DNA of 62,813 bases, filler included, from Malassezia furfur (GCA_052055015.1; 33 parts of 33 records of this genome joined end to end with filler, not necessarily neighbours in it), one strand, 5' to 3'. Shown: positions 7,898-60,133, counted from the first letter of the whole stretch. The notes: generated by a model not told the origin, from the letters alone. Numbers and translations are program-made.

Positions 7898-9101
7898 GCG
7901 GTGTGCTCGTGGACGTGCGCACCGCACGCCCACACGTCCGTGCCCGGGGGCACCGGCGGCGCCGGCACATCCCAGGCGTCCGCCGCGCCCGCGAGCGACA
8001 CGTGCGTCGTGGAGAACGTGGCGTGCGGCGACGCAAGCTCGACGCGCACCGCGTCCATCAGCGGGTTCGTGAGCGTGACGTGCACGCCGTCGTCCGTGCG
8101 CCGCGCGAGGTGCAGCGCCGGCACATACGCGCGCGCGAGGCGCCGGAGCTTGTACTGGCTCGACGAGGTGCGCAGCTCGGGCCGTACGAGCAGGTGCGTG
8201 CACGTGGCGCACCGCTTCGCGAGCTTCGCGCGGAGCCGCACGCGCTGCGGGCGCAGCGCATGGGCCTCGTACGGCTGCTCGAGCGGCATGCGGTAGCGCT
8301 GCGCGAGCGTCGACACGGCGAGCGCGGGCGTGTCTGGCGCGGTGCACGGCGTGAGGCGCTCGACACGCCGCGCCTCGCGCGTGACCTGCTTGCTCTGCGC
8401 GCGCGTCGTATGCACGGTCGGCACCGGCAGCTCGTCGCGCACGGGCGCCGGCGGCGCGCGGCGGCCCTGCCAGTAGCGCGCCGGGAGCGCCGGGAGGTCG
8501 GCGAGCACGCGGGGCACGCGCGCGGGTTCCGCAGGGTCGGGACGCGTGCCGACGTGGTGCGCGACGTGCCGCGCGAGGTCGTCGAACGCGCGCTGCTCGG
8601 CGCTCGGCTCGGACGCAGACGGGAGGCTGGCTGGGTGAGTGGGCACGACGCACCCTGCAGTGCGCTCGGCTTGGCGCCGACGAGGCCGATGCGCTTCGAG
8701 TCCCAGAGACACGCGGTGCACGCGTAGTAGAAGGGCGCGACGCCGATGCTCGCCTCGGCGCTCGTGAGCGGTGCGCCGTTGCGCGGGGGGTCGGTGCCGT
8801 GGATGGTGAGGACGTGCGTGCACACCGGGCACGCGACGCAGCTGCGTGCGCACTGTCCCTTTTGCGCGCCCGCGCTCGTGCTCGGCACCTCGAACAGGCA
8901 GTGCGGGCAGAAGCGGCTGCTGACCTCGCACGCGACGCACGCATTGCACCGCAGCTCGTAGCAGGCCTCGCAGAAGTAGAGCGCGCGCAGCGGTGCTCCG
9001 GGTGGCGGCGCGACCGCCGGCCACGCCGCGGGTACGCGCGCGGCGTGCCGCGCCGTGTGCAGGTCGTCCCACGCACACGCGCACAGGTACGTCGTGGTCA
9101 T
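7898..9101 (-). CDS. Dynactin p62 subunit (DCTN4), 3' truncated; 23-nt intron at 8631-8653
   Basis: Cys-rich [12 protein letters not shown]...[10 protein letters not shown]...[11 protein letters not shown] and downstream [20 protein letters not shown]. The two frames join exactly when GTGCGTCGTGCCCACTCACCCAG is removed. Confidence 0.9.
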
Positions 9102-9167
9102 GCACGGTGCGTCGCGGGGCGAAATTCGGGCGCATTTGCGTGAGCCTCCACACAGCACACCCCCACC

Positions 9168-9764
9168 ATGGCGACCAGGGCAGGGCCCGACGCCAGCGTC
9201 GCGGGGCTGCAGGCCGTGTCGTCGATTGTGCGCCGCGACTTCTCGTGGATGCCGCTCAAGATCGACCATGCGAGCCGCCCGCTGTGGATCTCGCCGGACG
9301 ACGGACATATCATTCTCGAGGGCTTCAACACGCTCGCGGAGCAGGCGCAGGATTTCCTGATTGCCATCGCGGAGCCCGTGAGCCGGTACGTCGGCGCGCG
9401 CCACCCACTGACCGCAGCCCGAGCTTCGTGCACGAATACAAGCTCACGCCGTACTCTTTGTATGCGGCCGTGTCGGTCGGCCTCGAGCCGGACGACATCA
9501 TCGAGGTGCTGAACCGCCTCTCCAAGGTGCCCGTGCCCAAGTCCGTGCTCGACTTTATCCGCGAGTACACGGCGAGCTTCGGCAAGATCAAGCTCGTCTT
9601 GCGGCAAAACAAGTACTTTGTCGAGAGCTCGCACCCCGAGATCCTGCAGATGCTGCTGCGCGACGAGGTCATTGCCGAGGCACGCATCAAACCCGACGGC
9701 GGCGCAGCGGTGGCGCGCCCCGAGGCGCCGCGCCCCGCGCGCGATGCTGCAGCGGCGGCGCCCA
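9168..9764 (+). CDS. SSL2: TFIIH XPB helicase N-terminus; 32-nt intron at 9386-9417
   Basis: [24 protein letters not shown]...[37 protein letters not shown] after splicing GTACGT...CTGACCGCAG. Confidence 0.95.
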
Positions 9765-9864
9765 NNNNNNNNNNNNNNNNNNNNNNNNNNNNNNNNNNNN
9801 NNNNNNNNTTAATTAATTAANNNNNNNNNNNNNNNNNNNNNNNNNNNNNNNNNNNNNNNNNNNN

Positions 9865-9963
9865 GCCGCGGTTCCCAACAACCGGCTGTCGGACGAGGAG
9901 CCGCCGGCGCTCGGCCTGCCCGAGTCGCTGAGCTTCTCGCCGATGCTGATGCAATATCTGTAA
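9865..9963 (+). CDS. 3' end of an unidentified protein
   Basis: AAVPNNRLSDEEPPALGLPESLSFSPMLMQYL* from the contig edge, followed by an AT-richer 3' UTR-like stretch. Confidence 0.5.
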   Translation, partial: AAVPNNRLSDEEPPALGLPESLSFSPMLMQYL

Positions 9964-10040
9964 AGCGCGTGCCTACGTTCGATCGCCCACCCACCCACAT
10001 CCTCCCTACCTTGTCCGTAGCTGTATAGACCTTGTCGCGT

Positions 10041-10071
10041 GTGTGCTGTGTGCTGTGTGCTGTGTGCTGTG
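10041..10071 (+). repeat. (GTGTGCT)n microsatellite, about 4 copies
   Basis: gtgtgctgtgtgctgtgtgctgtgtgctgtg in intergenic DNA. Confidence 0.85.
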
Positions 10072-10355
10072 CCTTGCGTGTGCGCTGGCGCCGGCGGTGC
10101 ACACCGCTGGTGGGCGCCTGCCCCAACGCGCTGTGCCCCAGCGCGCGCGCGCGCGTGCGTGGAGGTGGAGGTGGAGGCGGCGGCGGGCCGCCCGGGCCGA
10201 CCGGCTTTCACACCGGCTACGCGACGTGGGGATTGGCTCTGCCACGTTGTGCATTATGGATGCGCCCAATCACGGCGCACGTCGACAGCCCCCCGCAGCT
10301 CGCGCGCCATAAGAAGCACGCGCGGGGCGTTGGACGTCTTCCCCACCATTCTACC

Positions 10356-10756
10356 ATGAGCGAGTTCAAGTCGGCAGAGTACTTCAAGCAGATCACCGAC
10401 GGCCTGAGCGGCATGTCGGATGCCGAGAAGAAGGATCTTCAGAAGAAGACCAACGCCGTGTTCGAGTTCCACATCAAGAACTCGGGCGGCAAGGAGCTCG
10501 TGCAGACGATCGACCTCAAGAAGGAGGCGGCCGCCTACGAGGGCAAGGCCAAGGGCAAGGCCGACTGCGTGATCAACACGTCGGACGACAGTATGTATGC
10601 GCGTGCGCAACTGACTCTTTAGCGTTCGCCGACCTCGCCAGCGGCAAGGTCAACGGCCAGAAGGCGTTCATGTCGGGCAAGCTCAAGGTCAAGGGCAACG
10701 TCATGCTCGCGACCAAGCTCGACGGCGTGCTCAAGGCCCAGAAGGCCAAGGCGTAA
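10356..10756 (+). CDS. Sterol carrier protein 2 (SCP2/POX18-like); 32-nt intron at 10591-10622
   Basis: [13 protein letters not shown]...WTIDLK-like QTIDLKK...[44 protein letters not shown], ending AKA*. Confidence 0.93.
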
Positions 10757-10853
10757 ATGCCGTGTGCGTACGTAGTGCGTAGCGCAGAAGACCAGGCAGT
10801 GCCGGTCAATCGTGTGGGGGGTGTGGGGTCGGTAGGATGTGGTGTCTATCTGC

Positions 10854-11285
10854 CGAGGTGGCTACGGCGGGAGCTGCGGCGGCGGTTGCGGTAGGAGCTG
10901 CGGCGGTGGTTGCGGCGGGAGCTGCGGCGGCCGCTTTGACGGTAGCTTCGACGGCAGCAGCGTGGTAGCTTCGGCGGCAGCAGCGTGGTAGCTTCTGCGG
11001 CAGCTTCGGCGTCCGCTGCGGCCGCTTCGACGTCCGCTACGGCCGATACGGCCGACACGGCGGGCAGCAGCAGGGCAGCTTCGGTAGCCGCTACGGCGGT
11101 AACTTTGGCAGCAGCGACGGTAGCTTCGGCAGCTTCGGCAGTAGCTTCGGTGGCCACTACGGCGGCAGCTTTGGCGCCCGCAACGGCGGCCGCTTCCACG
11201 ATCGCTTCGGCAGCAGTTTGGGCGTCCGCTACGGCAGCTTCGGCAGCAGCTTCAGCGGCCGCTACGGCTCTGGCCTCGGCCCTCA
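10854..11285. repeat. Degenerate GGC/AGC/TTC-based low-complexity repeat with 23-nt tandem units
   Basis: Recurrent GGCAGCTTCGGC. Tandem unit GGTAGCTTCGRCGGCAGCAGCGT at 10941-10963 and 10964-10986. Confidence 0.75.
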
Positions 11286-15736: not shown

Positions 15737-17303
15737 ATGGCGGAGACCGCGGGCCGAGGCACGCCCGCGTCGGCGCGCGCGAGCGTCGCGGCCGACGAGC
15801 TCGGCGATACGCGTGCGATCAAGGCGCGGCTGCTGTCCGTGCTCGGCGACCATGCGACCGATTACTGGGCGGCGCTCGGCGATTTCTGTACCGCGGCGAT
15901 CGACCGTGCGGAGTTTGCCGCACGCGTGGAGCCATGGCTGCCCGACGAGTATGGTGGGTGCAGGCGTCCGCGCATCAGCGACTAACGCAGTTCCCCTGCA
16001 CAATGCGCTTGTACTGAGCATGCTCGCGGCTGCGAGCGCGCCGCCACGGCACGCGGGACGCGGCGCGCCCGGCACGACCGCGGCGCCCACCTCGCCGATC
16101 CGCGTGCGCGACGCATCGCTGCTCGACACGGACGCAGACGAGGACCTCGAGCATGAGCCGCCCGTGAACGGCATCGACACGCGGAGCAGCAAGCGCCTGC
16201 GGCACATGTACGCGGGCCTGACGCAGCGCGAGCGCGCGCGGCTGCAGCAGCTGCCGACCGGCAGCCAGAGCGGTGTGCACACCGCGGCGACTGTGTGGGC
16301 CGGCGCCGGCGCCGAACTGCTCGAGAAGAAACGCAAGGAGGACGAGAAGCGCAAAGCCGTCGAGGAGCGGCGCCGCACGCGCGAGGCCAAGTCGGCGATC
16401 GGCGCCGTGTCCTGGCGGGCGCATGCGGTGCAAAGCGCCGTGCAGACCGACGCGATCCGCGCACGTCTCTCCAACACGATGCAGGAAACGTTTGCACGTG
16501 GCGTCATGGTGCCCCACTGCGTCGAGATGCACGAGCTGCCCGACGTACATACCCTACAGGACCGCATGACATTCACCGCCGTCGAGGCCGGCCTCGCCGA
16601 GGGCGTGCATGTGCAGGCCGCGGCGGTGGTGCTTGCCGCGCTCGAGGACCACCTGCGCAACATTATCAGCAGCGCGCTCGCGCGCGTTCGCGGCCCATCG
16701 CGCGGCGATGCGCATGCATCGACATTTGGGCGCCTCAAGATGCCCGACATGGCTGCGCTGCTCGACCTGTCGCCGCACGTCGTGGTCGAGCCGCTGGGAC
16801 AGGGCGCGCTGGAGCGCCTGCTCACGCCGGACCTCGACGACTCTGTGGCGCCGACCTCCTCGGGCCCTGCAGCAGAGTCGTGGGCGCCCGAAGAGGCGCT
16901 CGCACGGTATGCCCAGGCATGTGCCACGGCCAAACTCGCCGACTCGGCCGCCGCGACGCCGCCCACCGACCCCAGTGCAGACGCGGCGATGCGTATGCGG
17001 CAGCAGCTGCAGAACCAGCGCGACTCGGTGCGCAATCGCGTGCTGTTGGACCAGCTCGCGCCGCTGCGCATGCTCGACCGGCCGGCCATCGCCGAGGCAA
17101 TGGCGCACCACGAGGATCTTGCGGTGGAGGTGCGCCGGCCGCACCCCAGCACCGCGCTTGGCCAGGCGCTCGCACAGCACTACCAGTCTGGCACGCATCA
17201 CCACCACCACCACCACGCGCACCCGAACCCGACACACCGGCACAAGGACGAGTTCTTTGATGTGGTCGACCCGGCCGCCCTGCTCGGCCAGTTGTGTGAA
17301 TAG
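15737..17303 (+). CDS. HFI1: SAGA subunit Ada1/Tada1; 37-nt intron at 15954-15990
   Basis: IKARLLSVLGDHATDYWAALGDFCTAAIDRAEF...EY|VPLHNALVLSML and histone-fold CVEMHELPDVHTLQDRM...EAGL...ALEDHLRNII. Intron GTGGGT...CTAACGCAG joins the frames. Confidence 0.85.
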
Positions 17304-17325
17304 AGTTTCCAGGGGTTGATGTACA

Positions 17326-21507: not shown

Positions 21508-23330
21508 CACGGCGCGGCGCTGGGCGGCGGAGCGCCCGGCGCGGGCAGCGCGGACGGCGCGCGTCCGCCGGTCGAGTTCAACCACGCGATCAACTACGTG
21601 AACAAGATCAAGCAGCGCTTCTCGGGCGAGCCAGACACCTACAAGCAGTTCCTCGAGATCCTGCAGACGTACCAGAAGGAGCAGCGGCCGATCCACGAGG
21701 TGTATGCGCAGGTCACGGTGCTGTTTGACCATGCGCAGGACCTCCTCGAGGAGTTCAAGCAGTTCCTCCCCGACACGGGCGCGCCGCCGCCGCCGTGCGC
21801 GCCCGAAGCGGAGCAAGCACGGCAAGGGCGACAGTGTGCCGCGGTCGGCGCACGGCGCGGCATATGCGCTGCCGCCCGGTGCGGAGATGCACGAGATGTA
21901 CGGCGCGCCCGTGCCGCACGGGGGTGTGCCGCCCGGCTACGAGCTGCCGCCCGAGGCGCCCGCGCCTGGGTTTGTGCCCGGTGGGGTGTACGACGTGCCG
22001 CCGTATGCGCCGCCGCCCGTGATGGCCGCGCCGGGCGGTGGGGCGCCTGCGCCGGGCGGTGTGGTGCAGCTGCCGCACATGGCGACGGTCGACGAGGTGG
22101 CGTTCTTTGAGCGCGTCAAGAAGCACATTGACGACCGCGCGGCGTACGTCGACTTCCTCAAGCTGCTCAACCTGTACACACAGGACGTGATCGATATCGG
22201 GACGCTGGTGGACCGTGTGACGCTGTTCCTCGGCGGGCAGCCCGAGCTGCTCGCCGCGTTCAAGACGCTCACCGGCTACGACATGGGCAAGCACGGGTGG
22301 CTCGAGAACGAGGAGCCCGTGCTGGAGAACGTGCCTGCGCTCGAGCGCGAGCGCTTCGACCTGAGCACGCGGCGCTCGTACGGCCCGTCGTACCGCAAGC
22401 TGCCCGACTCCGAGGTGAACCTGGCGTGCAGCGGACGCGACCCGCTGTGCTGGGAGGTGCTGAACGACACGTGGGTGAGCCACCCCACGTGGGCGAGCGA
22501 GGGCGAGTCGTTCAACCCGCACAAGAAGAACGTGTACGAGGACGCGCTGTACCGCTCCGAGGAGGAGCGCCACGAGTACGACTACCACATCGAGGCGAAC
22601 CTGCGCACCATTGCGCTGCTCGAGCCGATCGCCGCGCGCATCGCCGTGATGGACGCCGAGGAGCGCGCAAGCTTCCGCCTGAAGTCGGGGCTCGGCGGGC
22701 AGAGCAAGAGCATCTACCAGCGCATCATCAAAAAGGTGTACGGGCGCAACCACGGCCTCGAGGTGATCGCCGCGCTGCACGACAACCCGTCGGTCGCCGT
22801 GCCGGTCGTCCTCGCGCGGCTCAAGCAGAAGGACGAGGAGTGGAAGCGCGCGCAGCGCGAGTGGAACAAGGTGTGGCGCGAGGTCGACGCGCGCAACTTC
22901 TACAAGGCGCTCGACCACCAGGGCATCAACTTCAAGTCGACCGACAAAAAGACCATCACCACCAAGGCGTTCGTCCACGAGATCGAGACGCTGCGCACCG
23001 AGCAGCAGCAGCGCCGCCTCGCGCTCGACCCGAGCCTGCCCGCGCTCGCGCCGCGCTTCCAGCTCACGTACGCGCTCGACGACGGCCACGTCGTCCTCGA
23101 CGTGCTCCGACTCGCGCTCCACTTTGTCGACCGCGCCGCGTCGGGCTTCAGCGCCGGCGAGAAGGAGCGCGTCGTGTCCACGCTGCGCCAGCTGCTCCCG
23201 CGCCTCTTCCACATGGACGCCGCGGTGCTCGACGCGCTTGCGTCGCGCCGCGCCGCGCACGACGACGACGACGCCCATGCCCGCGACGAGACGCCCGAGT
23301 ACGCCGCCGAGCCCGCCGCAGGGGGGCGCG
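21508..23330 (+). CDS. SIN3: Sin3 corepressor (PAH2, PAH3, HID), partial, with a frameshift near 21795
   Basis: [17 protein letters not shown]...[14 protein letters not shown] in one frame. [33 protein letters not shown] and EEERHEYD lie in another frame. Confidence 0.95.
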
Positions 23331-23430: not shown

Positions 23431-24703
23431 CTGCGGATGTCTGCGCGACGGCCGGGGAGGCCGGGGAGGCCGCGGCGGCAGCGGGCGCTGCGCCCGACGC
23501 CGCACGCATCTGTGCGTGGATATGAGCGAGGGCGACGTGCAGCGCGGGGTAGTACTCGACGGAGGCTTTGCGCAGGGTGTCGAGCACGTCGTCCATGCCG
23601 CCCTCGCGCAGGTCGGCACACAGCTGTGCGCCGGCGTCGGTCGGGAGGTGCGCCAGCAGGGTACAGAGCAGCTCGAGGTGCGCGGTGGCATACCGCATCG
23701 CCTCGGACTCCACGGAGCCGGTCATGCCGCTCGGGATGCGGGGCCGCTGCGCCTCGGTGAGGTCGATGGCGTCGTAGTCCTGCACGACGTTCTCGTCGTG
23801 GCAAAAGATCCAGAAGAACTCGGCACAGAGCGTCTGCAGCTCGGCGACGTACGGGCGCATCGGGCGGGCCTTGCGCGGGACGAGCTCGATGGTATCAGAG
23901 GCAGGCGGCGCGACGTGCAAGAGCTGCAGCACGTACGGCACGCCGCTCGGCTGGCAGGCACGCGCGCGCTCGGCGCTCGGCGCGTGCGCCGTGCTGGGCA
24001 AGGGTATGTCGAGCTGGGCGCCGAGCGTCCAGAGCTGCACGATCCGCCGCCGCGTCTCGAGGTCCGCGGGGCGCTTGGGCGAGAAGAGCAGCGTGCCGAG
24101 CGCGTCGAACGGCGCGGGGGCGTGCTGTGCCATGGCCGCCATGCCGAGGGGGTGCGTGCCGAGCGCCACGACGCTCCGCACGAGCTCGTCGAGGAGCTGG
24201 TCGTCGTGCTGTTCCTCGCGCCATTCCATCGCGAGCACCTCGCGCAGGCGGTCGAGGATCGCAACGTACCCGCCGTCCGACACGAACGCGTGGATCCACA
24301 CGTCGTTTTCGGCGGCGAGCGCCACGCGCACCTGGCGCACCGAGTCGACCGGCAGGTGTGCGGCCGGTGCGGCCCGCAGACGGTGCACGGCGAGTGCCGG
24401 CGTGAGGCGGCGCGACGTGCCGCGCGGCGCGGCGGGTGCGTGCGAGGCCGAGGTCCGCCGGCGCAGGCCCGATGCGACGCGTTTCGGCATCCAGCGCAGG
24501 AAGCGCGGGCGCTCGGTGGGCGCCGGCTGGAGCGACAGGGCGTCGAGCTGCGCGGCGAGCGGGTCGTTTTGGCTGAGCGGTGCGAACGGGATGCGGCGCT
24601 CGTGCGTGGTGTAGGTGCGCGCGACGCGCTTCGGCGACAGCGTGCGCGGCACCTTGGCGTGCCGCGGCACGCGCGGCGTGAGCGGCGTGTTTTCCGAATC
24701 CAT
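23431..24703 (-). CDS. Rid1-like protein with formin-type GTPase-binding (GBD/armadillo) domain
   Basis: VRQVRVALAAENDVWIHAFVSDGGY..ILDRLREVLAMEWREEQHDDQLL and EFFWIFCH...GSVESEAMRYATAHLEL. ATG at 24703. Confidence 0.65.
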
Positions 24704-31063: not shown

Positions 31064-32867
31064 AAGCGCTTCTGCACCAACCTGCGGCGCACCGCCAAGG
31101 AGGAGCGCGTGCTGTTCTACTACAACGGGTACGGCGTGCCGAAGCCGACGCCCGGCGGCGAGATCTGGGTGTTCAACAAGGCGTACACGCAGTACATTCC
31201 CCTCACACTGTACGACCTGCAGACCTGGCTCGGGAGCCCCTGCATCTACGTGTGGGACACGAGCGCCGCGGGCAACATTGTCAACAACTTCCGCACACTC
31301 GCCGAGGTGCGCGCCGAGGAGGAGGCCAAGGCGGCGCTCAGCGAGGGCCGCGAGCCGCCGCCGCTGCCCAACGCGGACGGCATCACAGTCGACGCGCACG
31401 GCGAGCCGCAGTTCCCGCTGCGCGAGTCGATCCACCTCGCCGCGTGCGGCGCGGACGAGATCCTGCCGATGAACCCCGACCTGCCCGCGGACCTGTTCAC
31501 GTGCTGCCTCACGTCGCCGATCGAGATCTCGCTGCGGTGGTTCGTGCTGCAGAACCCGCTGCCGAGCGCGCTGAACGTGGACATGGTGATGAGCATCCCT
31601 GGGCGCCTGCAGGACCGGCGCACGCCGCTCGGCGAGCTCAACTGGATCCTCACCGCGGTGACGGACACGATCGCCTGGACGGTGCTGCCGCGCGCGCTCT
31701 TCCGCCGCTTCTTCCGCGACGATTTGATGGTCGCTGCGCTGCTGCGCAACTTCTTGCTCGCGGAGCGCATCATGCGCTTCTACCACTGCACGCCAGTGAG
31801 CCACCCGCGCCTGCCGCCGACGCACAACCACCCGCTGTGGGACTCGTGGGACTTGGCCGTGGACCAGTGCCTGGCGCAGCTCCCGACGCTCCTCGCGAAG
31901 GAGAACGCGCGCGTGGTCGCCGCGAACGGCGGCGACCCCATGCCGCCGCACCTCGCCGCGTTCGAGTACCAGCACAGCAGCTTCTTTAGCGAGCAGCTCA
32001 AGGCGTTCGAGGTGTGGCTTTCGCAGGGCGACGTGAGCCGCCGCGCGCCGCGCCGGCGCGTGCAGCGGCACCCCGTGCTGCTCGCGAGTGGCCCGGGCAC
32101 GACGCGCCCCGAGATGTCTGCCGCTGCCGAGGCAGGCGCCGTGCACGGCTACGAGGCCGACGCGGCGCTCGCCGACGACGCCGAGGCGCATGGGTTTGAG
32201 CACGACCCGCCGAGCCAGCTGCCGATCGTGCTGCAGGTGCTCCTGTCGCAGGTGCACCGCCTGCGCGCGCTCATCCTCCTCTCGCAGTTCCTGGACCTCG
32301 GGCCGTGGGCGGTGAATCTGGCGCTGAGCATCGGCATCTTCCCGTACGTGCTCAAGCTGCTCCAGAGCCCCGCGGCGGACCTCAAGCCCGTGCTGATCTA
32401 CATCTGGGCGCGCATCCTCGCGGTGGACCACAGCTGCCAGGTGGATCTGCTCCGCGACAATGGCTACATGTACTTTGCCACGGTCCTCTCGCCCTTCCAG
32501 GGCAACACGCAGGGCTCCTGGACCGCGCATGCCACGAGCGGCGCCGCCCCCGCGGCCGGCAGCGGCACGCCCGGCGCGCTGCCGATCCCCAACGTGTCCG
32601 AGCACCGCGCGATGTGTGCCTTCATCCTGGCCGTCTTCTGCCAGGACTTCCCGCTGGGGCAGGACGCGTGCCTCGAGACAGACGTGATGGACAGCTGCCT
32701 CGAGCACCTCGAGGACGACGACTTCCTGTTGCGCCAGTGGTCCGCGCTGTGCCTCGCGCAGCTATGGGACAACAGCGAGGCGGGCAAGGCCAAGGCGATT
32801 GCCAAGGACGCACACGGCAAGCTGTGCTGCCTGCTGAGCGACGCGTCGCCCGAGGTGCGCGCCGCGA
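31064..32867 (+). CDS. KOG1: Raptor/Kog1 TORC1 subunit (internal fragment)
   Basis: LFYYNGYGVPKPT, DLPADLFTCCLTSP, LGELNWILTAVTDTIAW, QLPIVLQVLLSQVHRLRAL, ALSIGIFPYVLKLLQS. Confidence 0.97.
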
Positions 32868-32967: not shown

Positions 32968-33688
32968 CGTCCGCCGCACGCAGCACCGCACCGAGCGCCA
33001 CCGCCTGCGCCGGCGTCGCCGTGCGGACCCACACGAGGCCATTCAGCCCAATCGCCGCCTCGAACGGGAAGTGCGACGCGACGTGCGCCAGCAGCGTGTG
33101 CTTGGGGTTGTACAGTGCATGCGCCAGGCGCAGACTCACGGGCCACACCATCGTGACGCCCTGCTCGGCATCGCGCTTCAGCTCGCCGAGCCCTTCGGCC
33201 TTGCCGCTCACCGCATCGACGCAGCTCAGCTCGGGCTCCGCCCACGGCTCGGCACTCACCACGCGCGCATACACCAGCGCACCCGCCTCGAGGTTCGGCC
33301 GGTTGCGCCGCGTCGCGCCCTCGAACGCCAGCACGGGCAGCGACGCACTGTGTGCGGAAAAGAGCGTCACCGTATACGACTCCATGCCGCGGTTCGTCAC
33401 TTGCCCAATCACCAGGTCGTCGGCGGCCGGCACGTACCGCCGCGCAGGGCTATCGACCCACCACCCATGCACGGTCGTGGGCGCGGTGCCCGCTGCGCGT
33501 TTTTCGCCTTTCGGCGCCTTGCTTCGTTGCTTCGTCTCGACGTGGCCCAGTGCGCCGCCCTGGATCGCAGTGAGCGATAGCTCGTCGGGCGACGCACGCG
33601 CCTGCGTCGGCGTATACAGGACTCCCGGGCCGAGCTTCACGGCATCACTCGCTTGGGGTATCACATCGCCAGGCAGCACAACGACCAT
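32968..33688 (-). CDS. RRP40: Exosome subunit Rrp40 (3' truncated)
   Basis: VVLPGD..KLGPG, RRYVPAADDLVIG, AFEGATRRNRPNLEAGALVYARV, PFEAAIGLNGLVWV. Confidence 0.95.
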
Positions 33689-34192: not shown

Positions 34193-34759
34193 ATGCCGAT
34201 TTTGAACACGGTTGTGCGTCGCAGTGTGACGGCCGCGCGGCCATCGCTCGCCCGCTCGCTCCAGGTGTCTGCGCGCCACATGAAGGAGGAGGGCAACGGC
34301 AACTACATGGCCGGCGTGCCGATCCCGCGCTCCGGCGAGCGCTCGACGCGCGATCTGATCCGCGAGCAAGTCGACCGCGAGAGCGAGCCGACGCCCGTGT
34401 CGATCGTGAGCGATGCGCCGAGTATGTACTGTGCACACTGACCCAGACTCTCTCCACCAGCGTGTCGTGCGCATCTACCAGCCGGCGAAGCCCGCGACCA
34501 TGTCGGGCCGCGCCGGGACGAAGCACTGGCGTGTGGACTTTGACGTCCTACAGGGCTCGGGCCGCTGGGAGAGCCCGCTGATGGGCTGGGCCAGCACGTA
34601 CGTTGCACCACTGACGCAGTGCGGACTCGCAGCAGGCGCTGTACATGAAGTTTGATACGAAGGAGGACGCCGTGTTCTTCTGCCAGAAGCAGGGCTGGGA
34701 CTTTTTCATCCAGGAGCCGCACAAGGCGCACATCCCGCCGAAGCAGTACGCGAACAACT
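34193..34759 (+). CDS. Complex I subunit NDUFS4; introns at 34422-34446 (25 nt) and 34598-34619 (22 nt)
   Basis: Spliced product reads ...VSDAP|NSLHQRVVRIYQPAKPATMSG...GRWESPLMGWAST|ADSQQALYMKFDTKEDAVFFCQKQGW...KQYANN. It has a mitochondrial presequence. Confidence 0.95.
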
Positions 34760-34983: not shown

Positions 34984-36182
34984 ATGTCGACCTCGCCGAC
35001 GTTCCGCGAGCCGTTCACGATCGATGTTGTTCTGCGTGCGCTGGACCGCGTGCCCTTCTCGCCGCCGTTCCTCGTGCTGCTGCCGCTGCTCACGCTGATG
35101 TGGGAGCTGCGCACGCTGTCGCCCGCGCACGTCGCGGCGTCGCTGCCGACGCTGCGCGGCTGGCACACGCTGCTGTGTGCGCAGCACAAGTGGGTGGGCC
35201 GCGCGATGCTGTTCATCGCCGCCAAGACGCTCTCGCGCTTCCTGTCGCGGCTCGCCGTTGTTCGCCGCGCGCCGATCCGCCCGTGTGGGAGCGCGACGTG
35301 GTGGTGGTCACCGGCGCCGCGACGGGCATCGGCAAGGCGGTGGTCGAGGAGCTCTCGCGGCGGTACCGCGCCAAGATTGCGGTGCTCGACATTGCGCAGC
35401 CGACGTATGCGCCGGCGGCGCCCGGCGCGCCGCCGATCCTGTTTGTGCGCACCGACGTGACGGAGCGCGCCTCGATCCACGCCGCGCACGAAAAGATCCG
35501 CGAGACGTTCGGCACCTCTCCGTCGCTCGTGGTGTCGTGTGCGGGCGTGGCGTTCGGCGGCCCGGTGCTGTCGGTGTCGCTGGACGCGGTGAACAAGATG
35601 ATGCAGATCAACGCGTTTGCCAACGTGCACCTCGCGCAGGAGTTTGTGCCGCACATGGTGCAGCAGAACCACGGGCACTACATGACGATCGCAAGCAGCG
35701 GCAGCTACTTTACGCCGCCGATGATGTCGAGCTACTGCATGAGCAAGGCGGCGGCGCTGGCGTTCCACGAGGAGCTGCGCAGCGAGCTGCGTGTGCTGTA
35801 CAAGGCGCCGCGCGTGCGCACGTCGATCGTGACGCCGACCAAGGTGCGCACGCTGCTGGGCGCGGGGCTCAAGGACACGGACAATGCGTTTATTGCGCCG
35901 ACGCTCGAGCCGATCCAGGTCGCGCGCGCGATGGTCGATGCGCTGAACAGCGGGCTGTCGCACTCGGTGTCGCAGCCGATGTCGACGAAGCTGCTGCCGT
36001 TTTCGCGCGCCATGCCCGACTGGTTCCGCGCGCTGATCGAAACGGTCGGCAAGACGGACCAGGCGGTGACGCCCGAGACGATGCGCGACGCGCTGCGCCA
36101 GGGCTACGGCAAGAACTGGGACACGAAGGACTTTGAGCGGCTCCTGGGCGAGATGGATGCGGCCTACCGGAAGGAGGACTAG
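34984..36182 (+). CDS. Membrane-anchored short-chain dehydrogenase/reductase, with a frameshift near 35256
   Basis: Hydrophobic N-terminus in one frame. WERDVVVVTGAATGIG, TDVT, INAFA and the catalytic YCMSK lie in another frame. Confidence 0.85.
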
Positions 36183-38970: not shown

Positions 38971-40416
38971 TTACACCCACACATTGTCCTGCAGCTCGGG
39001 GCCGACGCCCACGGCGTGCACGCGGAACCCGATCTCGCGCAGCTTCGTTGGATTGACGACGCGGCGGCCATCAAACACGACCGCGGGCTTGCGCATGATG
39101 TTGAAGACTTTGACCCAGTCAATCGCACTGAACTCGTCCCAGTCCGTGGCGATGACGACGGCCTCGGCGTCGTGGCACGCGTCCAGCACACTGGGGCACA
39201 CCGTGACCGCCTCCTCGACTGCATGTGAGCGCTGCGCGCATACGTACCCGCCTTGCGGTCGTCCGTCACCCCCGGCTCGGTGAGGTCGAGGAAGATTTGC
39301 TCGCGCTTCACCTTGGGGTCGTAGATGGCAATGTGCGCGCCCTCCTGACGGAAGTGCTTGCACAGCGTGATGGCCGGCGACTCGCGCTGCGTCAGTGCGG
39401 CGACCTACCGTATCGCCCGTATCCTTTTTGAACGCAAAGCCGAGCAGCGCCAGGCGCTTGGCCGTGACCGTGTTGAAGAGCGTCTGCACGACCTTTTTCG
39501 CAAAGCGCGCCTTGGAGAACTCGTTCATGACAATCACCTGGCGCCAGTACTCGGCGACCTCGGGCAAGCCCAGCGAGCCGCTCAGGTACACGAGGTTCAA
39601 AATGTCCTTTTGGAAGCAGCTCCCGCCGAAGCCCACACTCGCGCGCAAAAAGTGCGGCCCAATGCGCCGGTCGACGCCGCATGCGTCGGCCACCTCGTAC
39701 ACGTTGGCGCCCGTCGCCTCGCAGATCGCCGAGATGGCGTTGATCGAGGAAATGCGCTGCGCCAAGAGCGCGTTCGCCGCCTACACCGTCAGTAGACCCA
39801 CGTACCAGTTTGGTCAGCTCGCTGCTCCACAGCCCCGTACGCAGCACCCGTTCCTTGGGCACCCACCGCTCGTACACCTCGCTGAGCAGCTCGGCGGCGC
39901 GGTGGCCCTGCGCGGTGTCGAGGCTGCCGATCAGCACACGGTCGGGATGGAGCAGGTCCTGCACCGCCGTGCCCTCCGACAGAAACTCGGGGTTCGACAA
40001 GATCTGGAACGGCGTGCCCGGCTTGCTGTTCGCCTCGAGAATCGCGCGCATGGACGCTGCGGTGCGGCACGGCACCGTCGACTTCTCCACAATGATCTTG
40101 GGCGTCTGCGCGATGGACGCAATGCGCCGCGTGGACGCTTCGACGTAGCGCAGATCGGCCGCGAAGCCACTGCCGATGCCCGACGTCTTGGTCGGCGTGT
40201 TGACGCTCACAAACACAATCTGCGCCTCGTCGATGGCCTTGTCAATGTCCGTCGTGAAGAACAGGTTGCGACCGCGGCACTCGCCCACGATCGCCGCCAG
40301 ACCCGGCTCAAACACGGGCAGCTGCGTCAAGTCCTCTGAATTCCACGCGGCAATCCGCTCGGGGTTCACGTCGACGATCGTCACGACAATGTCGGGGCAC
40401 TGCTGCGCCAGCACCG
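38971..40416 (-). CDS. UGD1: UDP-glucose 6-dehydrogenase (5' truncated); introns at 39781-39805, 39387-39408 and 39219-39247
   Basis: [77 protein letters not shown]. Splicing the 25-, 22- and 29-nt introns restores the motifs. Confidence 0.97.
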
Positions 40417-41098: not shown

Positions 41099-42168
41099 CT
41101 AGCTGCGCTGTGCACGGCGCTTGCGGGAGCGCATGCGCTTTTCATGTGCCTCACGCGCGGCGTGCAGGCTGCGCAGACCGTCCTGCCCGGCCTTACTCAG
41201 CACACCGAGAATCAGCTCGGCGACGCGCGGCGAGTCGTCGTTAGCAGGGATCGCGTATGTCACCGCACGGGGGTCGACGTCGGTGTCGACGATCGCCATC
41301 GTAGGGATATTGCACTGCGTCGCCTCGCGCAGTGCGTTGATGTTGTCCACCGGGTTCAGTACAATCACCAAGTCGGGCTGGTACAGCTGCGACGCAAGCT
41401 TGGCCGTGCTGGGCGCCTCCTCACCCTCACGGAGGTGCTCGGCATGCCGCGCGGCCGAGTGCTGGATCGCGGGCGCAAGCAACTTCGGCGCGTTGGTCAG
41501 CACACCGGGCACCCAGCGGTCGGTGCTCACGTGGAAGCCATTGTCGCCCAGCCGCGCGGCTGCGGCGCGCACCGCAGGCTGAAGTTCGGGGCGGGTGCCC
41601 ACAATGAGAATGATGCCGTCGTTCTCGGCGATGCCGCGCACAACGTGCACGGCACGACGGAGCGCGGGGAGCGTCGCGCGCTCCACGTCAATCACTGCCA
41701 TGCCGTGGCGCGTGCCGTACAGGTACGGCTCGTAGCTGCGCTGCACATGCGAGCGGGCGTGCCCGAGCTGCGCCGTGGCCGCAAGCAGATGCGACAGCGT
41801 AAGCTGGTGCGGCTCGAGCGCCTGTGTCCGCTGCTTGTACGGCCGGAACGACGAGGCGCGTGTCTGCGTGCTTGCCATGCCCGCGAGATCATCGACTGCA
41901 TGGTGAGTAGGGCGTACGTACGCATGGTGCGGCGCATCTTGCGCACAAGGCGCTCTGCTGCGCTCTCGGTGCCCTGTACGTCCGCCAGGGCGGCCGCGTG
42001 ACGCTGGCGCTGCGCTTCCTCGCGCGCAATCTTGGCGTCGGCATGCTCGATCTGGATCGGCTCCTCCGGAATGACAAAAGTATCGTGCGCCTCCGTTGTC
42101 ACTGTGCGAGCGCGCACGCGCGGCGCGGCGCGCAGCACGCTCCTTCGCACCGACGTCCACATGGACAT
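41099..42168 (-). CDS. MRP4: Mitochondrial ribosomal protein uS2m; 26-nt intron at 41896-41921
   Basis: Presequence MSMWTSVRRSVLRAAPR, then LLAATAQLGH...PYLYGTRHGMAVID, RWVPGVLTN, PDLVIVLNP, NIPTMAIVDTD..YAIPANDDS. Confidence 0.93.
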
Positions 42169-42400: not shown

Positions 42401-42622
42401 GACGCTGTCCGCGGGCGGCGGGTCGACGCGCGCGCCCGTCTCGATGCGGGCCGCCTCGTCGGCCGCGAGCGCCTGTGCGACGGTCGCGTTCACGCGCGCG
42501 GGGTCGATGCCCTCGAGCTGCGCATGCAGCGCGTCCTGCTCGGCGGGCGCGAGCGTGTCGTAGAACGCAAACACGTGCTCCTGGCCCGCGGCCGCATACT
42601 TCGCGCGAAGGTCCTCGGACAT
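42401..42622 (-). CDS. QRI1: UDP-N-acetylglucosamine pyrophosphorylase, 5' end
   Basis: MSEDLRAKYAAAGQEHVFAFYDTL...LHAQLEGIDPARVN matches the UAP1/Qri1 N-terminus. Confidence 0.8.
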
Positions 42623-42687
42623 GGTGGTTCGTTCGGTGCACGTGCCCGGGGTGGAGGCGGCGGCTACAGGGGGGGCCACACGAAGTT

Positions 42688-43866
42688 CTACGAGAGCGTC
42701 GCGCCGACAAACGTCGCGGCAAAGCACGGGCCCTGCGCGGTGCGCAGCGCGCGCGGCGCCTTGTCGCCGTCGGGCGCGTCGGGCAGCGGGCCGTACCACG
42801 CGGCGGTGCGGTCGTCCGTCGTGCAGTAGTTCGGCTGGATCGCCTCAAAGATCTTCTTCTTGGGGTTCAGCTGCTCGAGCGGCGCGAGGTGCTCGTAGCC
42901 CTCGACGTAGATGCGCTCGCCGAGCGGCGCGTCCGCGGGCGGCTGCACGGGCTCGATGCCGTGCTCCTTGCCGTCCTTGTGCGTCGCACAGAGCAGCATG
43001 CCGTAGCTCTTGATGCCGCGCATCGCGACCGGCTTCAGGTTGCAGATGCCGACCACGCGGCGGTCGCGCATCTCGTCGATCGGCACGTAGTGCACGAGGC
43101 CCGAGAGGATCGTGCGCGGGCCGTCCGGCTCGCCAAAGTCGACCTTTTCGAGGTACAGCGCGTCCGCGTCGGGATGGCGCTGGATGTCGACGATGCGGCC
43201 GACGCGCATGTCGACCATGCTCGGCAGCGGCCCCGTCTCGGGGGCGACGGGCGGCGCGCCGCCCTTTTGCTTCGGCGCCTTGGGCTCCTTGGCCTTTTTC
43301 GGCGCAGCAGCGGCGGCGGCCTGCTGCGGCGCGTCGTCCTTCTTCTCCTGCTTCTCCTTCTTGTCCTTCTTGTCCTTCTTCTCCTTCGCCGGCGCCGCGC
43401 GCTCGATGCGCGGGAACCCGTCGAACGCCGGCTCGAACGCGGTCACGGGCGGGTCGAGCTGCGCGCCCGCCGCGAGGTGCGACATGTGCGAGAAGTAGCG
43501 CACGAGCGACGGGTGCGCATGCTGCGCGGCGGGCGGCAGCGTCGACACGACGTCGTACAGCGACGCGAACAGCGAGTAGTCCGCGGCGGTCGGCGCGTTG
43601 CCCACGAGGAACGTGCGCGAGGCGAGCGCGCGGTCGAGCGTCTCGAGCGAGCCGTTCATCCCGTCGACCTCGTCGAGCCAGCGGTCCGTCTCGGAGCGCT
43701 CGGCGTCGCTCGCGCCGAGCACGCGCTCGGGCGCGTCGGTGAGCGCCGCGAGGTCGTGCGCATAGGCGCGCAGCGGCGCATTCGCATTCAGCGCGCCCAC
43801 CGCGGCGCCCTCACGCACCGCGCGCGCGTACACATCCACCAGCAGCTGCCTTGCTCGTTGCGCCAT
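42688..43866 (-). CDS. ARC1: Aminoacyl-tRNA synthetase cofactor Arc1 (GST-like domain, Lys-rich linker, OB-fold tRNA-binding domain)
   Basis: RTFLVGNAPTAADY, DMRVGRIV..HPDADALYLEKVDFGE..PRTILSGL, CNLKPVAMRGIKSYGMLLCA, LNPKKKIFE. Confidence 0.95.
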   Translation of the reverse strand: MAQRARQLLVDVYARAVREGAAVGALNANAPLRAYAHDLAALTDAPERVLGASDAERSETDRWLDEVDGMNGSLETLDRALASRTFLVGNAPTAADYSLFASLYDVVSTLPPAAQHAHPSLVRYFSHMSHLAAGAQLDPPVTAFEPAFDGFPRIERAAPAKEKKDKKDKKEKQEKKDDAPQQAAAAAAPKKAKEPKAPKQKGGAPPVAPETGPLPSMVDMRVGRIVDIQRHPDADALYLEKVDFGEPDGPRTILSGLVHYVPIDEMRDRRVVGICNLKPVAMRGIKSYGMLLCATHKDGKEHGIEPVQPPADAPLGERIYVEGYEHLAPLEQLNPKKKIFEAIQPNYCTTDDRTAAWYGPLPDAPDGDKAPRALRTAQGPCFAATFVGATLS

Positions 43867-45225: not shown

Positions 45226-46056
45226 CTAGGGCGCGGCCCACGTCTGCGCGATGCGCCGCGCGGGCGCATCGTAGTGCACGAGCGCCACCTCGACGGGCGC
45301 GCCGAGCGCCGCAAGCACCGCCGGCACAGGGCGCGCCGACGCGCCGCTCGTCACCGTCGTTGTGCTCGCGCTCGTGGGCGCCTCGTGCGGCGAGCGACTC
45401 GCCAGTGTCACGGTCTGATCCGCGTCAAAGCCCGCCGAGTACGACCGCGAGAGCGGCGAGCGCGTCGCACCCACGCCGCCCGCATCCGGCACAGGCGACT
45501 TCGACTGCTGCTGCTGCTGCTGCCGCTCGCGGCGGCGCGCGAGCCACGACGACGCAGAGCGGCCGTCGGACGAAGTCGAGCGCTGCGACTCGCTGCGCTC
45601 GAGGTGCCGCGTAAAGTCGTTCAGTTTCATGGGCGGTAGCACAAACCCGCCGTGGTGCACGACGGTGTGCGTCTCGCGGCCGCCGGCCGTGTCCTGCACC
45701 TTCTCCTGCGGGAGATCCGCCGGGGACTGCACCAGCCGCCAGACGGCGCTCTGCACAGTCTGCGGCGTGTTGTAGCCTTCGGACGAGCGCTCGGAGAACG
45801 CCTCGGGCGCGGTGTACATCGTGGTTGCCTGGCTGCTCACCGGCGAAAACACGCCCGCAAACGGCGCGTTCGCCGGCGAGCCGGCAAGGCTCGCGATCGG
45901 CGACAGCGAGTCGAGCGGCTCCTTGCTGCCCGGCCGCTGCGTCAGTGCGTTCCACGCCTCGATACTCATGGGCGGCGCAGTGGCAGGCGCGCCGGCGCGC
46001 GCGCCCACGTCGGCCCCCGGCAGCGCGGGCGACCGATACGCGCCAGGGACGGACGG
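45226..46056 (-). CDS. 3' part of a Ser/Pro-rich unidentified protein
   Basis: Open frame with a polyQ run, converging on the carrier gene. Confidence 0.55.
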   Translation of the reverse strand, partial: PSVPGAYRSPALPGADVGARAGAPATAPPMSIEAWNALTQRPGSKEPLDSLSPIASLAGSPANAPFAGVFSPVSSQATTMYTAPEAFSERSSEGYNTPQTVQSAVWRLVQSPADLPQEKVQDTAGGRETHTVVHHGGFVLPPMKLNDFTRHLERSESQRSTSSDGRSASSWLARRRERQQQQQQSKSPVPDAGGVGATRSPLSRSYSAGFDADQTVTLASRSPHEAPTSASTTTVTSGASARPVPAVLAALGAPVEVALVHYDAPARRIAQTWAAP

Positions 46057-55391: not shown

Positions 55392-55491
55392 NNNNNNNNN
55401 NNNNNNNNNNNNNNNNNNNNNNNNNNNNNNNNNNNTTAATTAATTAANNNNNNNNNNNNNNNNNNNNNNNNNNNNNNNNNNNNNNNNNNNN

Positions 55492-57252: not shown

Positions 57253-57352
57253 NNNNNNNNNNNNNNNNNNNNNNNNNNNNNNNNNNNNNNNNNNNNTTAA
57301 TTAATTAANNNNNNNNNNNNNNNNNNNNNNNNNNNNNNNNNNNNNNNNNNNN

Positions 57353-58892
57353 GCGGCACATCGGCCAGGAGCGACGTGCCGCTGCGTGCCAAGTTCGTCG
57401 GCTTCGGCGCAGGCTCGCTGGGCGCCGACGTAAACGCGCCGAGGTCGTCAAACGCGGCGTCGTACGTCGTGCCTGGCGACGCATACCGCTCACCCCCGCC
57501 CCGGTCGACGAGCGGCCCAATGCGGGGCGGCGGCGCACTCGTGCGCGCGTGCACAGGTACCTCGAACGCGAGCTCCGGCGCAAACAGCTCGTTGCCGTGC
57601 GCCGATACGCCGCTGCCACTATCATTGTCGTCGTCATCGTCGTACTCTTCGTCGTAGTGGGTGCCGTAGTGGGTCGCGGCCGGCTCGTCGTCCACGACGT
57701 ACTCGTCGTACGACACGCCCTGCCGGCCGCGGTACTTGCCCGTGTCCGAGTAGCGCGCGCCCGAGCCCGGCGCGTCTTCAAACGCGGCAAACGCATCGTC
57801 CGTCGCGTCGTACGACGTGCGCACCGGCGGGGGCAGCGACGTCGTCTGATCGAGCCACGACAGGTCGAGGTCGCTCAGCGCCGCGGACTGCGGCATGGGC
57901 GGCTTGCGTGCCGCCTCCTTGGGCTTTGGCGCGGGCTTTGGCGAGGCTGGCGCACTCACGTTCGGCGACTGCGTCTGCGGCGTACGGCGCCAGCCACGCA
58001 GAATGCCGCCGGACGGCGCTTCGCTCGTTGTCGGCGTCGACGTGCCGGACCCGCTGCTGCGCGTGAGCCAGCTCGTGAGCTTGTTCGTGGACGGCGGCGC
58101 GGGCGGCGCAACACGGCGCCAGCCCGGGTCCGGCTCTGGCTCGCGCTTCGGCTCCGGCGCACGTCGGCGCCATTGCGAGACGGCCGCGCCGAGTCGCGAG
58201 ATGGCCGACGGCGCGGGCGTCGCGGCGGGCGCATCGGCACTCGGTGCCTGTGCCTCTTGCGCCGCCGGCTCGGGCGCGCGCCCATACGTCTCGTCCGCGC
58301 CGGGCGCGGGGTATGCTTCGGCGTCGTGGCTCGGCGCCGGTTCGGACGGGCGCGCCTCGTGCGTGCCAAGGTCGGGCGCCTCGTGCGTGCCAATGTCGGG
58401 CGCCTCGTGCGCGCCATCGTCGGGCTCCTCGTGCGCGCTGCCCGTGTCGCTTTGTGCGTCGTCGTCCGCGCTGTCGTCCTGCGTGCTTGCGTGCCAAATG
58501 CGCGTCTGGATCGTGTCGCCGCCGCCCCACACGTTTTCTTCGATCGCGGCCGCATCGGTCGCGAGGTGGGTCAGGCCGGGGTCAAGTGACACCGACGGCG
58601 GCTCGGCGATCGACATGTGCGCCACTGAGGACGTGATATCGTCGGCGCCCAGTGCGCCGAGGCCCGCCGACGCGCCGAGCGGCGCCGCGGAATCGGCCGG
58701 CGCCTGGACTTTGGCGGGCGCATCGTCCCACGCCGAGGCGCTGGCGCCCAGATCGTGCGGCGCCGCAGCGCCCCACGGCTCGTCGTCGGCCAGGCCGACG
58801 GGCGCAACAATGCGCGCCGGCTCAGGCTCGGGCAGCGCCGCGTCCGTCTCGCCGCCCGCGTCGCTCGCCCACGGACTCGCCCAGGGGTCCAT
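57353..58892 (-). CDS. Acidic disordered protein with DPW/EPW-type motifs and 8-aa repeats (3' truncated)
   Basis: MDPWASPWAS...DDEPWG...ENVWG, plus in-frame 24-nt repeats GAHEAPDI/GTHEAPDL/GTHEARP. Confidence 0.65.
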
Positions 58893-58947
58893 TCGGAGCG
58901 CGAGGGAACACGTGACGCGCCGAAGAAGTCGGTCGCTTTTGAGCGCC

Positions 58948-59108
58948 ATGTCGCTGGTAGGCAAGAGTGTGCGTGGCCTGCTGCGCTACGCGCCGCTTCG
59001 CGTGCCGAGGTCTGCACGCGCTCTCGCGCGACCCCTGACGACGTATGCGCCGCGGTGGCGCCCGGATGTGGCACGCACCGCGACGCCGACGGCGGACGCC
59101 CCGCCGGC
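58948..59108 (+). CDS. 5' end of a probable mitochondrial protein
   Basis: MSLVGKSVRGLLRYAPLRVPRSARALARPLTTYAPRWR is Arg-rich and acid-free, like a presequence. Confidence 0.6.
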
Positions 59109-59209
59109 NNNNNNNNNNNNNNNNNNNNNNNNNNNNNNNNNNNNNNNNNNNNTTAATTAATTAANNNNNNNNNNNNNNNNNNNNNNNNNNNNNNNNNNNN
59201 NNNNNNNNC

Positions 59210-60133
59210 CACCGCGACCACCGCAAGCTGTACCGCGCGCTGTGCATCCTGCGCGACACCGGCACGCGCCAGTCCGAGTGGGTCCGTGCGCAGGACGCCG
59301 CGGACGACGCGCCGCGCCCGCCGGCGTTTGGGCAGCGCCGCCTCCTGTTCTGGGTATGGAGCGAGCGCGCGGCGCTCAACGCGCGGCTCGACCGGCGCAT
59401 CGGGCAGATGGTCGAGGTACGTCGCCCCCTCACGCAGCGCGGACTCCTCGACGAGATCAACGCTCTGCGCGCCATTGCGCGCCAGGCGCCTACGGACGTC
59501 GACTACACACGCGGCATCTACCAGGCGATCGGTACGTGCGCCGCTCACGCAGGGTACAAGGAGTTTGACGCCTACCTCGCGCACCGCGAGCGCCACGGCG
59601 ACGACGCAGACGCACAGCGCCTCTTTGACGCGGCGATCGCCGCGATGCAGGTCGCTACGCGCCGCTACGCGAAGCGGCAGACTGCGTGGATCCGCAACCA
59701 GCTGCTCCCTGCCGTGCACGCCGCGCAGGACCGCGGCGAGGAGGTGTATCTGTACGTGCTCGACGCCACGGACCCCGCGCGCTGGGACGCCGACGTCCGC
59801 CGGCCTGCCGAGGCGATCACCCAGGCGTTCCTCGCACACGCGCCGATGCCCGAGCCGCGCACGGTGTGTGCGGCGGCCGACGAGCTGCTGGCACGCGCGC
59901 CGCGCAAGCACGGCGCGCTCGAGCGCAACGCGATGTTCACGTGTGAGGTGTGCACGAGCGACGCGGCGCATCCGTTCCGCGTGCGCGAGACGGAGCGCGC
60001 GAAGCACCTCCACTCGCGCACGCACCGCTACGCGCTGAAGCGGCGCACGCGGCAGCAGTGGATCGCCGAGCACAAGGAGCACGGCGAGGAGGTGCGCCGC
60101 ACGCGCGAGGCGCGGCGCCAGGGCAGCGGATAG
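59210..60133 (+). CDS. MOD5: tRNA dimethylallyltransferase (5' truncated); two 21-nt introns at 59417-59437 and 59532-59552
   Basis: HRDHRKLYRAL, RLDRRIGQMVE|RGLLDEI, GIYQAIG|YKEF, TRRYAKRQTAWIRN, and a C-terminal zinc finger CEVC...HLHSRTH. Confidence 0.95.
   Translation, partial: HRDHRKLYRALCILRDTGTRQSEWVRAQDAADDAPRPPAFGQRRLLFWVWSERAALNARLDRRIGQMVEVRRPLTQRGLLDEINALRAIARQAPTDVDYTRGIYQAIGTCAAHAGYKEFDAYLAHRERHGDDADAQRLFDAAIAAMQVATRRYAKRQTAWIRNQLLPAVHAAQDRGEEVYLYVLDATDPARWDADVRRPAEAITQAFLAHAPMPEPRTVCAAADELLARAPRKHGALERNAMFTCEVCTSDAAHPFRVRETERAKHLHSRTHRYALKRRTRQQWIAEHKEHGEEVRRTREARRQGSG

Follow-up and report, generated by a model that had tools for sequence, protein, structure and literature searches.

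Almost certain spliceosomal introns of 21 to 37 nt in a fragmented Malassezia assembly

Genes in a 62,813-nucleotide (nt) stretch of Malassezia DNA (hereafter the window) are interrupted by twelve inserts that, judging from their signals and coding context, are almost certainly real spliceosomal introns of 21 to 37 nt. They lie in the genes for dynactin p62, the helicase SSL2/XPB, an SCP2-domain protein, ADA1, NDUFS4, UDP-glucose 6-dehydrogenase (UGD1), the mitochondrial ribosomal protein uS2m (MRP4) and transfer RNA (tRNA) isopentenyltransferase (MOD5). Very probably they are ordinary U2-type GT-AG introns of a genus whose introns average ~30 nt. An earlier, sequence-only reading of the window had presented them as a candidate minimal-intron splicing system. 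The introns and their extreme shortness stood up to analysis but their novelty did not, as introns of this kind are already in print as a property of the genus validated by RNA sequencing (RNA-seq). The finding is a correct observation of a phenomenon already known for Malassezia. The insert sequences, the restoration of reading frame on their removal, the continuity of homology across the junctions and the variation among relatives in presence, absence and length of the inserts were observed directly. The twelve introns are listed below, with the distance of the predicted branch A from the intron end.

8631..8653, minus strand: dynactin p62 (DCTN4-like) intron; 23 nt, phase 1, donor GTGCGT, branch motif CTCAC, predicted branch A 5 nt from the end
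9386..9417, plus strand: SSL2/XPB helicase intron; 32 nt, phase 2, donor GTACGT, branch motif CTGAC, predicted branch A 6 nt from the end
10591..10622, plus strand: SCP2-domain gene intron; 32 nt, phase 1, donor GTATGT, branch motif CTGAC, predicted branch A 8 nt from the end
15954..15990, plus strand: ADA1/SAGA-Tad1 intron; 37 nt, phase 1, donor GTGGGT, branch motif CTAAC, predicted branch A 5 nt from the end
34422..34446, plus strand: NDUFS4 intron 1; 25 nt, phase 1, donor GTATGT, branch motif CTGAC, predicted branch A 5 nt from the end
34598..34619, plus strand: NDUFS4 intron 2; 22 nt, phase 2, donor GTACGT, branch motif CTGAC, predicted branch A 5 nt from the end
39781..39805, minus strand: UGD1 intron 1; 25 nt, phase 0, donor GTACGT, branch motif CTGAC, predicted branch A 8 nt from the end
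39387..39408, minus strand: UGD1 intron 2; 22 nt, phase 0, donor GTAGGT, branch motif CTGAC, predicted branch A 5 nt from the end
39219..39247, minus strand: UGD1 intron 3; 29 nt, phase 1, donor GTACGT, branch motif CTCAC, predicted branch A 7 nt from the end
41896..41921, minus strand: MRP4 (uS2m) intron; 26 nt, phase 1, donor GTACGT, branch motif CTCAC, predicted branch A 8 nt from the end
59417..59437, plus strand: MOD5 intron 1; 21 nt, in frame, phase 0, donor GTACGT, branch motif CTCAC, predicted branch A at nucleotide 16
59532..59552, plus strand: MOD5 intron 2; 21 nt, in frame, phase 1, donor GTACGT, branch motif CTCAC, predicted branch A at nucleotide 16

The window consists of 33 contigs, sorted from 1882 down to 1751 nt and placed end to end with 32 identical spacers between them (N44-TTAATTAATTAA-N44, a six-frame stop; for example at 1883-1982, 3859-3958 and 60963-61062). 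It has a G+C content of 67%, includes 2816 N, and represents the end of a fragmented assembly where the contigs are shortest. As the 33 contigs behind the spacers are unrelated, the region 8631-59552, over which the introns had been described as one feature, is artificial; the twelve are spread over 7 unrelated contigs. Gene adjacency across the spacers is artificial as well, and many genes are truncated at contig ends. The best named protein matches assign the organism to Malassezia, within the furfur/obtusa/brasiliensis group. The first exon of UGD1 shares 93% identity with M. obtusa and 90% with M. yamatoensis, and the uS2m protein shares 93% identity with M. brasiliensis and 84% with M. 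psittaci.

A scan of both strands for GTRNGT...CTVA[CT]...AG recovered all twelve inserts at the lengths given by the sequence-only reading, whose description of the signals also proved accurate. Their lengths average 26.25 nt, with a median of 25 (n = 12, range 21-37); nine introns are under 30 nt, in the range of the ultra-short introns of ciliates, nucleomorphs, microsporidia and myxozoans, and the other three measure 32, 32 and 37 nt. Each has GT at its 5′ end and AG at its 3′ end. All twelve tabulated intron sequences have a GTRNGT donor, which in seven of them reads GTACGT. A CTVAC branch motif occurs in every intron (CTGAC in six, CTCAC in five, CTAAC in one), with its final base 4-7 nt before the intron end, and by count from the intron sequences it is preceded by A in nine of the twelve, giving ACTVAC. 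The predicted branch A lies 5 nt from the last intron base in seven introns, 6 nt in one, 7 nt in one and 8 nt in three. Just 3-6 nt thus separate it from the terminal AG, which leaves no room for a pyrimidine tract, and a polypyrimidine tract is indeed absent. Each of the two 21-nt introns contains just three adenosines, at positions 3, 16 and 20. Since A16 alone falls outside the splice-site motifs, the branch point would have to be nucleotide 16, as proposed earlier, if an adenosine is used. The U12-type consensus, with the donor RTATCCTT and the branch sequence TCCTTAAC, is matched by no donor or branch motif among the 12 introns.

The lengths of two of the twelve introns are multiples of three and both of these introns are free of stops, in a set that is small (n = 12). 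Stop-free introns of such lengths are reported to be depleted in Paramecium. The density in the window is 12 introns in 59.6 kb, and most contigs comprise one uninterrupted open reading frame (ORF), as expected of an intron-poor genome.

The combination of signals exceeds chance when defined strictly (GTRNGT, 3-22 nt, CTVAC, 1-6 nt, AG, total ≤40 nt). This motif has 13 starts in the window, compared with 2.54 ± 1.62 expected and a maximum of 7 in 300 dinucleotide-preserving shuffles of the 33 contigs. The 13 are the twelve introns and one alternative donor nested in UGD1 intron 1, with none elsewhere.

Removal of the inserts restores coding sequence, in agreement with the sequence-only reading. 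Ten of the twelve lengths are not multiples of three, and in all ten cases excision joins two open frames, with G+C at third codon positions (GC3) of 0.71-1.00. Continuity of homology or of a protein profile was found for 11 of the 12 junctions, and NDUFS4 intron 1 was placed by frame alone. Pfam was run on 20 exon translations. The same profile continues over five junctions, those of SSL2, SCP2, ADA1, NDUFS4 intron 2 and UGD1 intron 3, and the matches are consistent for UGD1 introns 1 and 2 and the MOD5 pair. Pfam gave no family for the exons upstream of NDUFS4 intron 1 and of the MRP4 intron.

UGD1 provides the clearest alignment. We aligned the spliced protein using 9 of the 120 matches listed, and compared with seven annotated full-length proteins (from M. 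obtusa, M. yamatoensis, M. vespertilionis, M. equina, Malassezia sp. CBS 17886, Tilletiaria and Coprinopsis) it is free of gaps at all three junctions (residues 203/204, 327/328 and 373/374). The gap-free alignment fixes these junctions. Two unspliced protein calls mark the same sites: P0016 leaves the frame exactly at intron 1, and P0019, from another Malassezia, does so exactly at intron 2, the removal of which restores a 14-residue stretch. Introns 1 and 2 cut the starts of Pfam domains in a consistent manner, and across intron 3 the UDPG_MGDP_dh_C profile runs from 15-46 to 51-103. Introns 2 and 3 together measure 51 nt (22+29), so that between 38974 and 39780 (minus strand) they shift the frame out and back again with a stop-free wrong frame between them. 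A single ORF of 269 codons therefore passes through both introns and carries 46 wrong residues.

For MRP4, the spliced junction is free of gaps in comparison with seven of eight full-length Malassezia orthologs (10 of the 120 matches listed were aligned). Exon 1 is conserved, and its start, MSMW..., is common to M. brasiliensis. The uS2m record of M. brasiliensis (P0136) is without 25 residues located just past the junction (RTMLDDLAGMASTQTRASSFRPYKQ in the window model, 41820-41895, minus strand), which the seven other Malassezia orthologs keep. This loss probably reflects annotation of a longer intron in place of the 26-nt one.

In SSL2 the frame is restored, and the Helicase_C_3 profile stops at the last residue of exon 1 (profile 1-31) and resumes at the third residue of exon 2 (34-121). 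The unspliced frames of the SCP2-domain gene and of ADA1 each stop after 10 codons. Once spliced, the SCP2 profile runs 8-62 then 65-101, and that of SAGA-Tad1 runs 7-54 then 58-238. NDUFS4 intron 2 likewise restores the frame, with the Pfam NDUS4 profile at 2-42 before the junction and 44-89 after it. Exon 2 of this gene matches solved NDUFS4 chains from residue 2. Exon 1 supplies the start codon and has a GC3 of 0.84, and the unspliced frame stops after 6 codons. Its N-terminus looks presequence-like when read by eye, and no homolog of exon 1 was detected in PDB or Pfam.

Removal of the p62 intron joins a frame of 263 codons to one of 243. Both exons match the Pfam Dynactin_p62 profile (1-110, then 268-337) in order, though not contiguously, and the spliced protein aligned over both exons with six full-length homologs (7 of the 150 matches listed were aligned). 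An automatic call of 169 residues, P0258, runs into an insert at the site of this intron. The p62 start codon at 9101 (minus strand) and the opening of the SSL2 frame at 9144 (plus strand) are ~40 nt apart, and the two divergent genes share a very short common upstream region.

Several points weigh against the identification of these inserts as introns, or against details of it. Excision is predicted from genomic DNA alone and the branch points are predicted from the motif. A looser form of the motif is not enriched, with 18 occurrences compared to 12.85 ± 3.71 in shuffles (maximum 23). The case therefore depends mainly on frame and homology, not on the motif by itself. The p62 junction falls in a variable stretch, and for this reason 8631-8653 was preferred over 8627-8649 and 8627-8646 by its signals alone. 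NDUFS4 intron 1 was called from the frame, the signals and the need for a start codon. Finally, the two MOD5 inserts have lengths that are multiples of three and contain no stops, and the frame would stay intact if they were retained.

As the frame is thus uninformative on the MOD5 inserts, they could in principle be coding insertions specific to this lineage, or frequently retained introns, adding 7 residues each. We regard this as very unlikely. The unspliced frame is indeed open for 238 codons, and both inserts are contained in the automatic protein calls P0001 and P0002. However, both open with GTACGT, include CTCAC and finish with GCAG. In the Pfam IPPT profile, the MOD5 exons match 119-178, then comes an unmatched exon of 31 residues, and then 205-243. 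In an alignment of the window sequence with 11 homologs, the 7 residues of insert 1 are present in three of the twelve (the window and relatives of 99% and 89% identity) and absent from nine. A scan of metagenome contigs for MOD5 yielded 39 loci, of which seven are Malassezia-like (L001-L007, 54-59% identity). Insert 1 is missing from the genomic DNA of all seven, and insert 2 is missing from six (L002-L007), in which the QAIGYKEF sequence is uninterrupted.

The second MOD5 site is the more informative. Insert 2 interrupts the conserved motif as QAIG|YKEF, and its removal restores it. The remaining locus, L001, has at this site and in the same phase an insert of 24 nt (GTACGT...CTGACCGCAG) with a CTGAC branch motif and a CGCAG 3′ end. 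In another relative, the unspliced call P0013 keeps the correct frame as far as QAIG and translates the following exon in a wrong one, which means that the length of its insert is not divisible by three and that this insert cannot be coding. Depending on the lineage, then, this site carries 0, 21 or 24 bases or a number not divisible by three, which is the behavior of an intron and not of coding sequence, and intron signals are found wherever the DNA is visible. In addition, two of the three residue differences from the 99% relative (P0001) are within the 7 codons of intron 2. The restriction of intron 1 to the window and its 99% and 89% relatives points to a recent gain or to several losses. 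We considered whether the two introns are copies of each other (introner-like or duplicated). They are identical at 17 of 21 positions by count, yet 15 of these are shared signals, and there is no evidence of copying.

A further possibility is that the inserts arose as errors of assembly or sequencing in a fragmented draft. The contigs are short (~1.8 kb, from the tail of the assembly), and one frame switch without intron signals does occur among them. In SIN3 (contig 12, 21770-21830, plus strand) a change to the next frame separates the first PAH domain from the second PAH and Sin3_corepress. The switch is near 21790-21815, in a (GCC)n/GC-rich stretch without GTRNGT or CTVAC, and may represent an assembly indel in the (GCC)n run or an unconventional 19-nt GT-AG insert at 21795-21813. 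Artefacts would not be expected to show GTRNGT, CTVAC and AG in 12 of 12 inserts, however, and independent relatives (P0019, P0258, L001, P0013, P0001 and P0002) carry inserts at these same sites. We therefore consider an artefactual origin exceedingly unlikely, and retain the identification of all twelve as introns.

No further convincing introns were identified in the window by two relaxed scans, one for any GT...AG of 15-150 nt joining two coding-like frames and the other for introns of up to 100 nt that have a GTNNGT donor and a degenerate form of the branch motif. Several candidates were rejected. A 38-nt GTGCGT...CTCAC...CAG match at 33560-33597 (minus strand) is within the continuous frame of RRP40 and has a length not divisible by three. 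It is a chance occurrence, and a sign that the loose motif cannot identify introns by itself. The sequence at 59864-59947 (plus strand) codes for conserved MOD5 residues. At 61630-61661, 31786-31825 and 23885-23936, two open frames of high GC3 are not joined in any phase. Both flanks of an in-frame candidate of 36 nt at 45945-45980 are high in GC3 in phase 1, but the candidate is opposite a stronger ORF on the minus strand. A frame join at 42578-42708 (minus strand) was read as an intergenic gap ahead of the ACCACCATG start, and another at 35257-35291, in a short-chain dehydrogenase gene, is without intron signals in a region where a long ORF already contains the domain. Alternative junctions for the accepted introns (9386-9423, 39381-39408, 8627-8649, 8627-8646 and 34431-34446) all have poorer signals than those chosen.

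If the introns are spliced conventionally, the GTRNGT donor would pair with U1 and later with U6, and (A)CTVAC would pair with U2 so as to bulge the branch A. The first AG, 5-8 nt past the branch A, would then serve as acceptor, and would be chosen by its proximity to the branch because there is no room for a pyrimidine tract. Splice sites would be paired across the intron (intron definition). Excision, the use of the predicted branch A and this mode of 3′ splice-site choice are all deduced from the sequence. Strict, near-invariant signals would be the expectation for an intron-poor genome with minimal introns, and Irimia, Roy and colleagues have reportedly linked few introns to strict signals. 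No small nuclear RNA (snRNA) genes were detected in the window using Rfam, and no tRNA genes using ARAGORN.

Reduced spliceosomes, which have lost snRNAs or core splicing proteins, are known in microsporidia, diplomonads and Cyanidioschyzon. The sequence-only reading had proposed something similar here, on the grounds that introns of 21-23 nt are too short to hold the U1 small nuclear ribonucleoprotein and U2/SF3b together, so that the spliceosome may be reduced or rewired, for example by loss or truncation of U2AF, SF1, SF3b or U1 components. What speaks for this is geometry only: the shortest introns have no pyrimidine tract, and in them the 5′ end is 16 nt and the 3′ end 5 nt away from the predicted branch A. 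We found no published survey of Malassezia spliceosome components in the literature searched. The donor and branch motifs are fully canonical, however, which suggests that pairing with U1/U6 and with U2 is retained. Moreover, a recent study reports that U2 snRNA and U2AF1/U2AF2 are conserved in myxozoans with median introns of 22 bp, and cites Stentor (15-16 bp) as alike (PMC13644364). By these precedents tiny introns need no reduced machine, and we judge a reduced spliceosome improbable in this organism. An adapted form of SF1, U2AF or SF3b may nonetheless be compatible with the present data.

Very short introns have been documented in Malassezia before. In the curated annotation of M. sympodialis, as tabulated in the source, there are 5350 introns with a mean of 30 bp, 99% of them supported by RNA-seq, and aligners were set to introns of 10-2000 bp (PMC5389616 Table 2). 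For M. restricta, gene prediction was run with the minimum intron length set to 20 and later lowered to 15 (PMC6473144), and the tabulated average and median are 37.2 and 30.0 bp (PMC9241646). A review refers to "very short introns" in Malassezia genes (PMC7426719), and M. sympodialis is treated as an intron-poor species in PMC8476143. In the literature searched, including the accessible portions of these sources, we found no published statement on how short Malassezia introns can be, on their branch motif or on the 5-nt distance from branch to acceptor. The preprint by Sales-Lee (10.1101/2021.03.19.436190) contains no mention of Malassezia. The introns reported here resemble those of M. sympodialis and M. 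restricta in that all are very short GT-AG introns in compact genomes of one genus. With a mean of 26.25 nt and a median of 25 (n = 12), they compare with a mean of 30 bp in M. sympodialis and a median of 30.0 bp in M. restricta, and they come from a separate species of higher G+C content, in the furfur/obtusa/brasiliensis group.

Outside the genus, ciliates have introns in a similar range of length (Paramecium ~25 nt, Stentor 15-16 nt), likewise without a pyrimidine tract. They are reportedly removed by an apparently conventional spliceosome (PMC5014332; 10.1101/2021.08.05.455221; Stentor via PMC13644364). The genomes of ciliates are rich in both AT and introns, and the internal signals are weak, whereas the genome sampled here is 67% G+C and intron-poor, with a strong yeast-like branch motif in every intron. 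In myxozoans and dicyemids the median is ~22 bp and the pyrimidine tract is absent or very short, and the accessible text of the study concludes that splicing is conventional and U2-dependent (PMC13644364). These are parasitic animals, however, in which that text describes the branch signal as weakly conserved A residues. The same 2026 paper lists ciliates, microsporidia and dicyemids as exceptions with introns below 30 bp, and Malassezia is unnamed in that portion of it.

Microsporidia, Giardia and Trichomonas resemble the Malassezia set in having few introns, strict signals and a short distance from branch to AG. The introns of microsporidia are short, and in Giardia and Trichomonas the branch and 3′ motifs are fused; these lineages have few introns with strict, extended signals and a branch near the 3′ AG. 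They differ in that their spliceosomes are strongly reduced and their introns very few, whereas Malassezia has thousands of introns.

We also considered a stronger claim, namely that Malassezia of the furfur group splices at or near the physical lower limit of U2-type splicing, with a floor of 21 nt. From the sequences at hand this seems rather doubtful. Were it so, the minimal intron may consist of a donor and a spacer of 6 nt each, CTNA (placing the branch at A16) and 5 nt to the junction. The spacing from branch to acceptor may be nearly fixed at 5 nt, with no pyrimidine tract, and the 3′ splice site may be recognized independently of pyrimidine-tract binding of the U2AF type.

The chief practical value of the finding concerns annotation quality. 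As the sequence-only reading had anticipated, tiny introns trip gene callers: the unspliced calls P0016, P0019, P0258 and P0013 all read into them. In this 67% G+C genome, reading through in the wrong frame continues for 137-205 codons in UGD1 and for 198 in p62. The set also provides a clean description of a minimal intron, with a donor hexamer, a spacer of at least 6 nt, (A)CTVAC, and an AG 3-6 nt past the branch A. No explicit account of this layout in Malassezia turned up in the literature searched. Malassezia is transformable (PMC5654937), and the lower length limit and the spacing from branch to acceptor are therefore directly testable. If the 21-nt floor is true, a culturable, transformable fungus would become a model for minimal-intron splicing.

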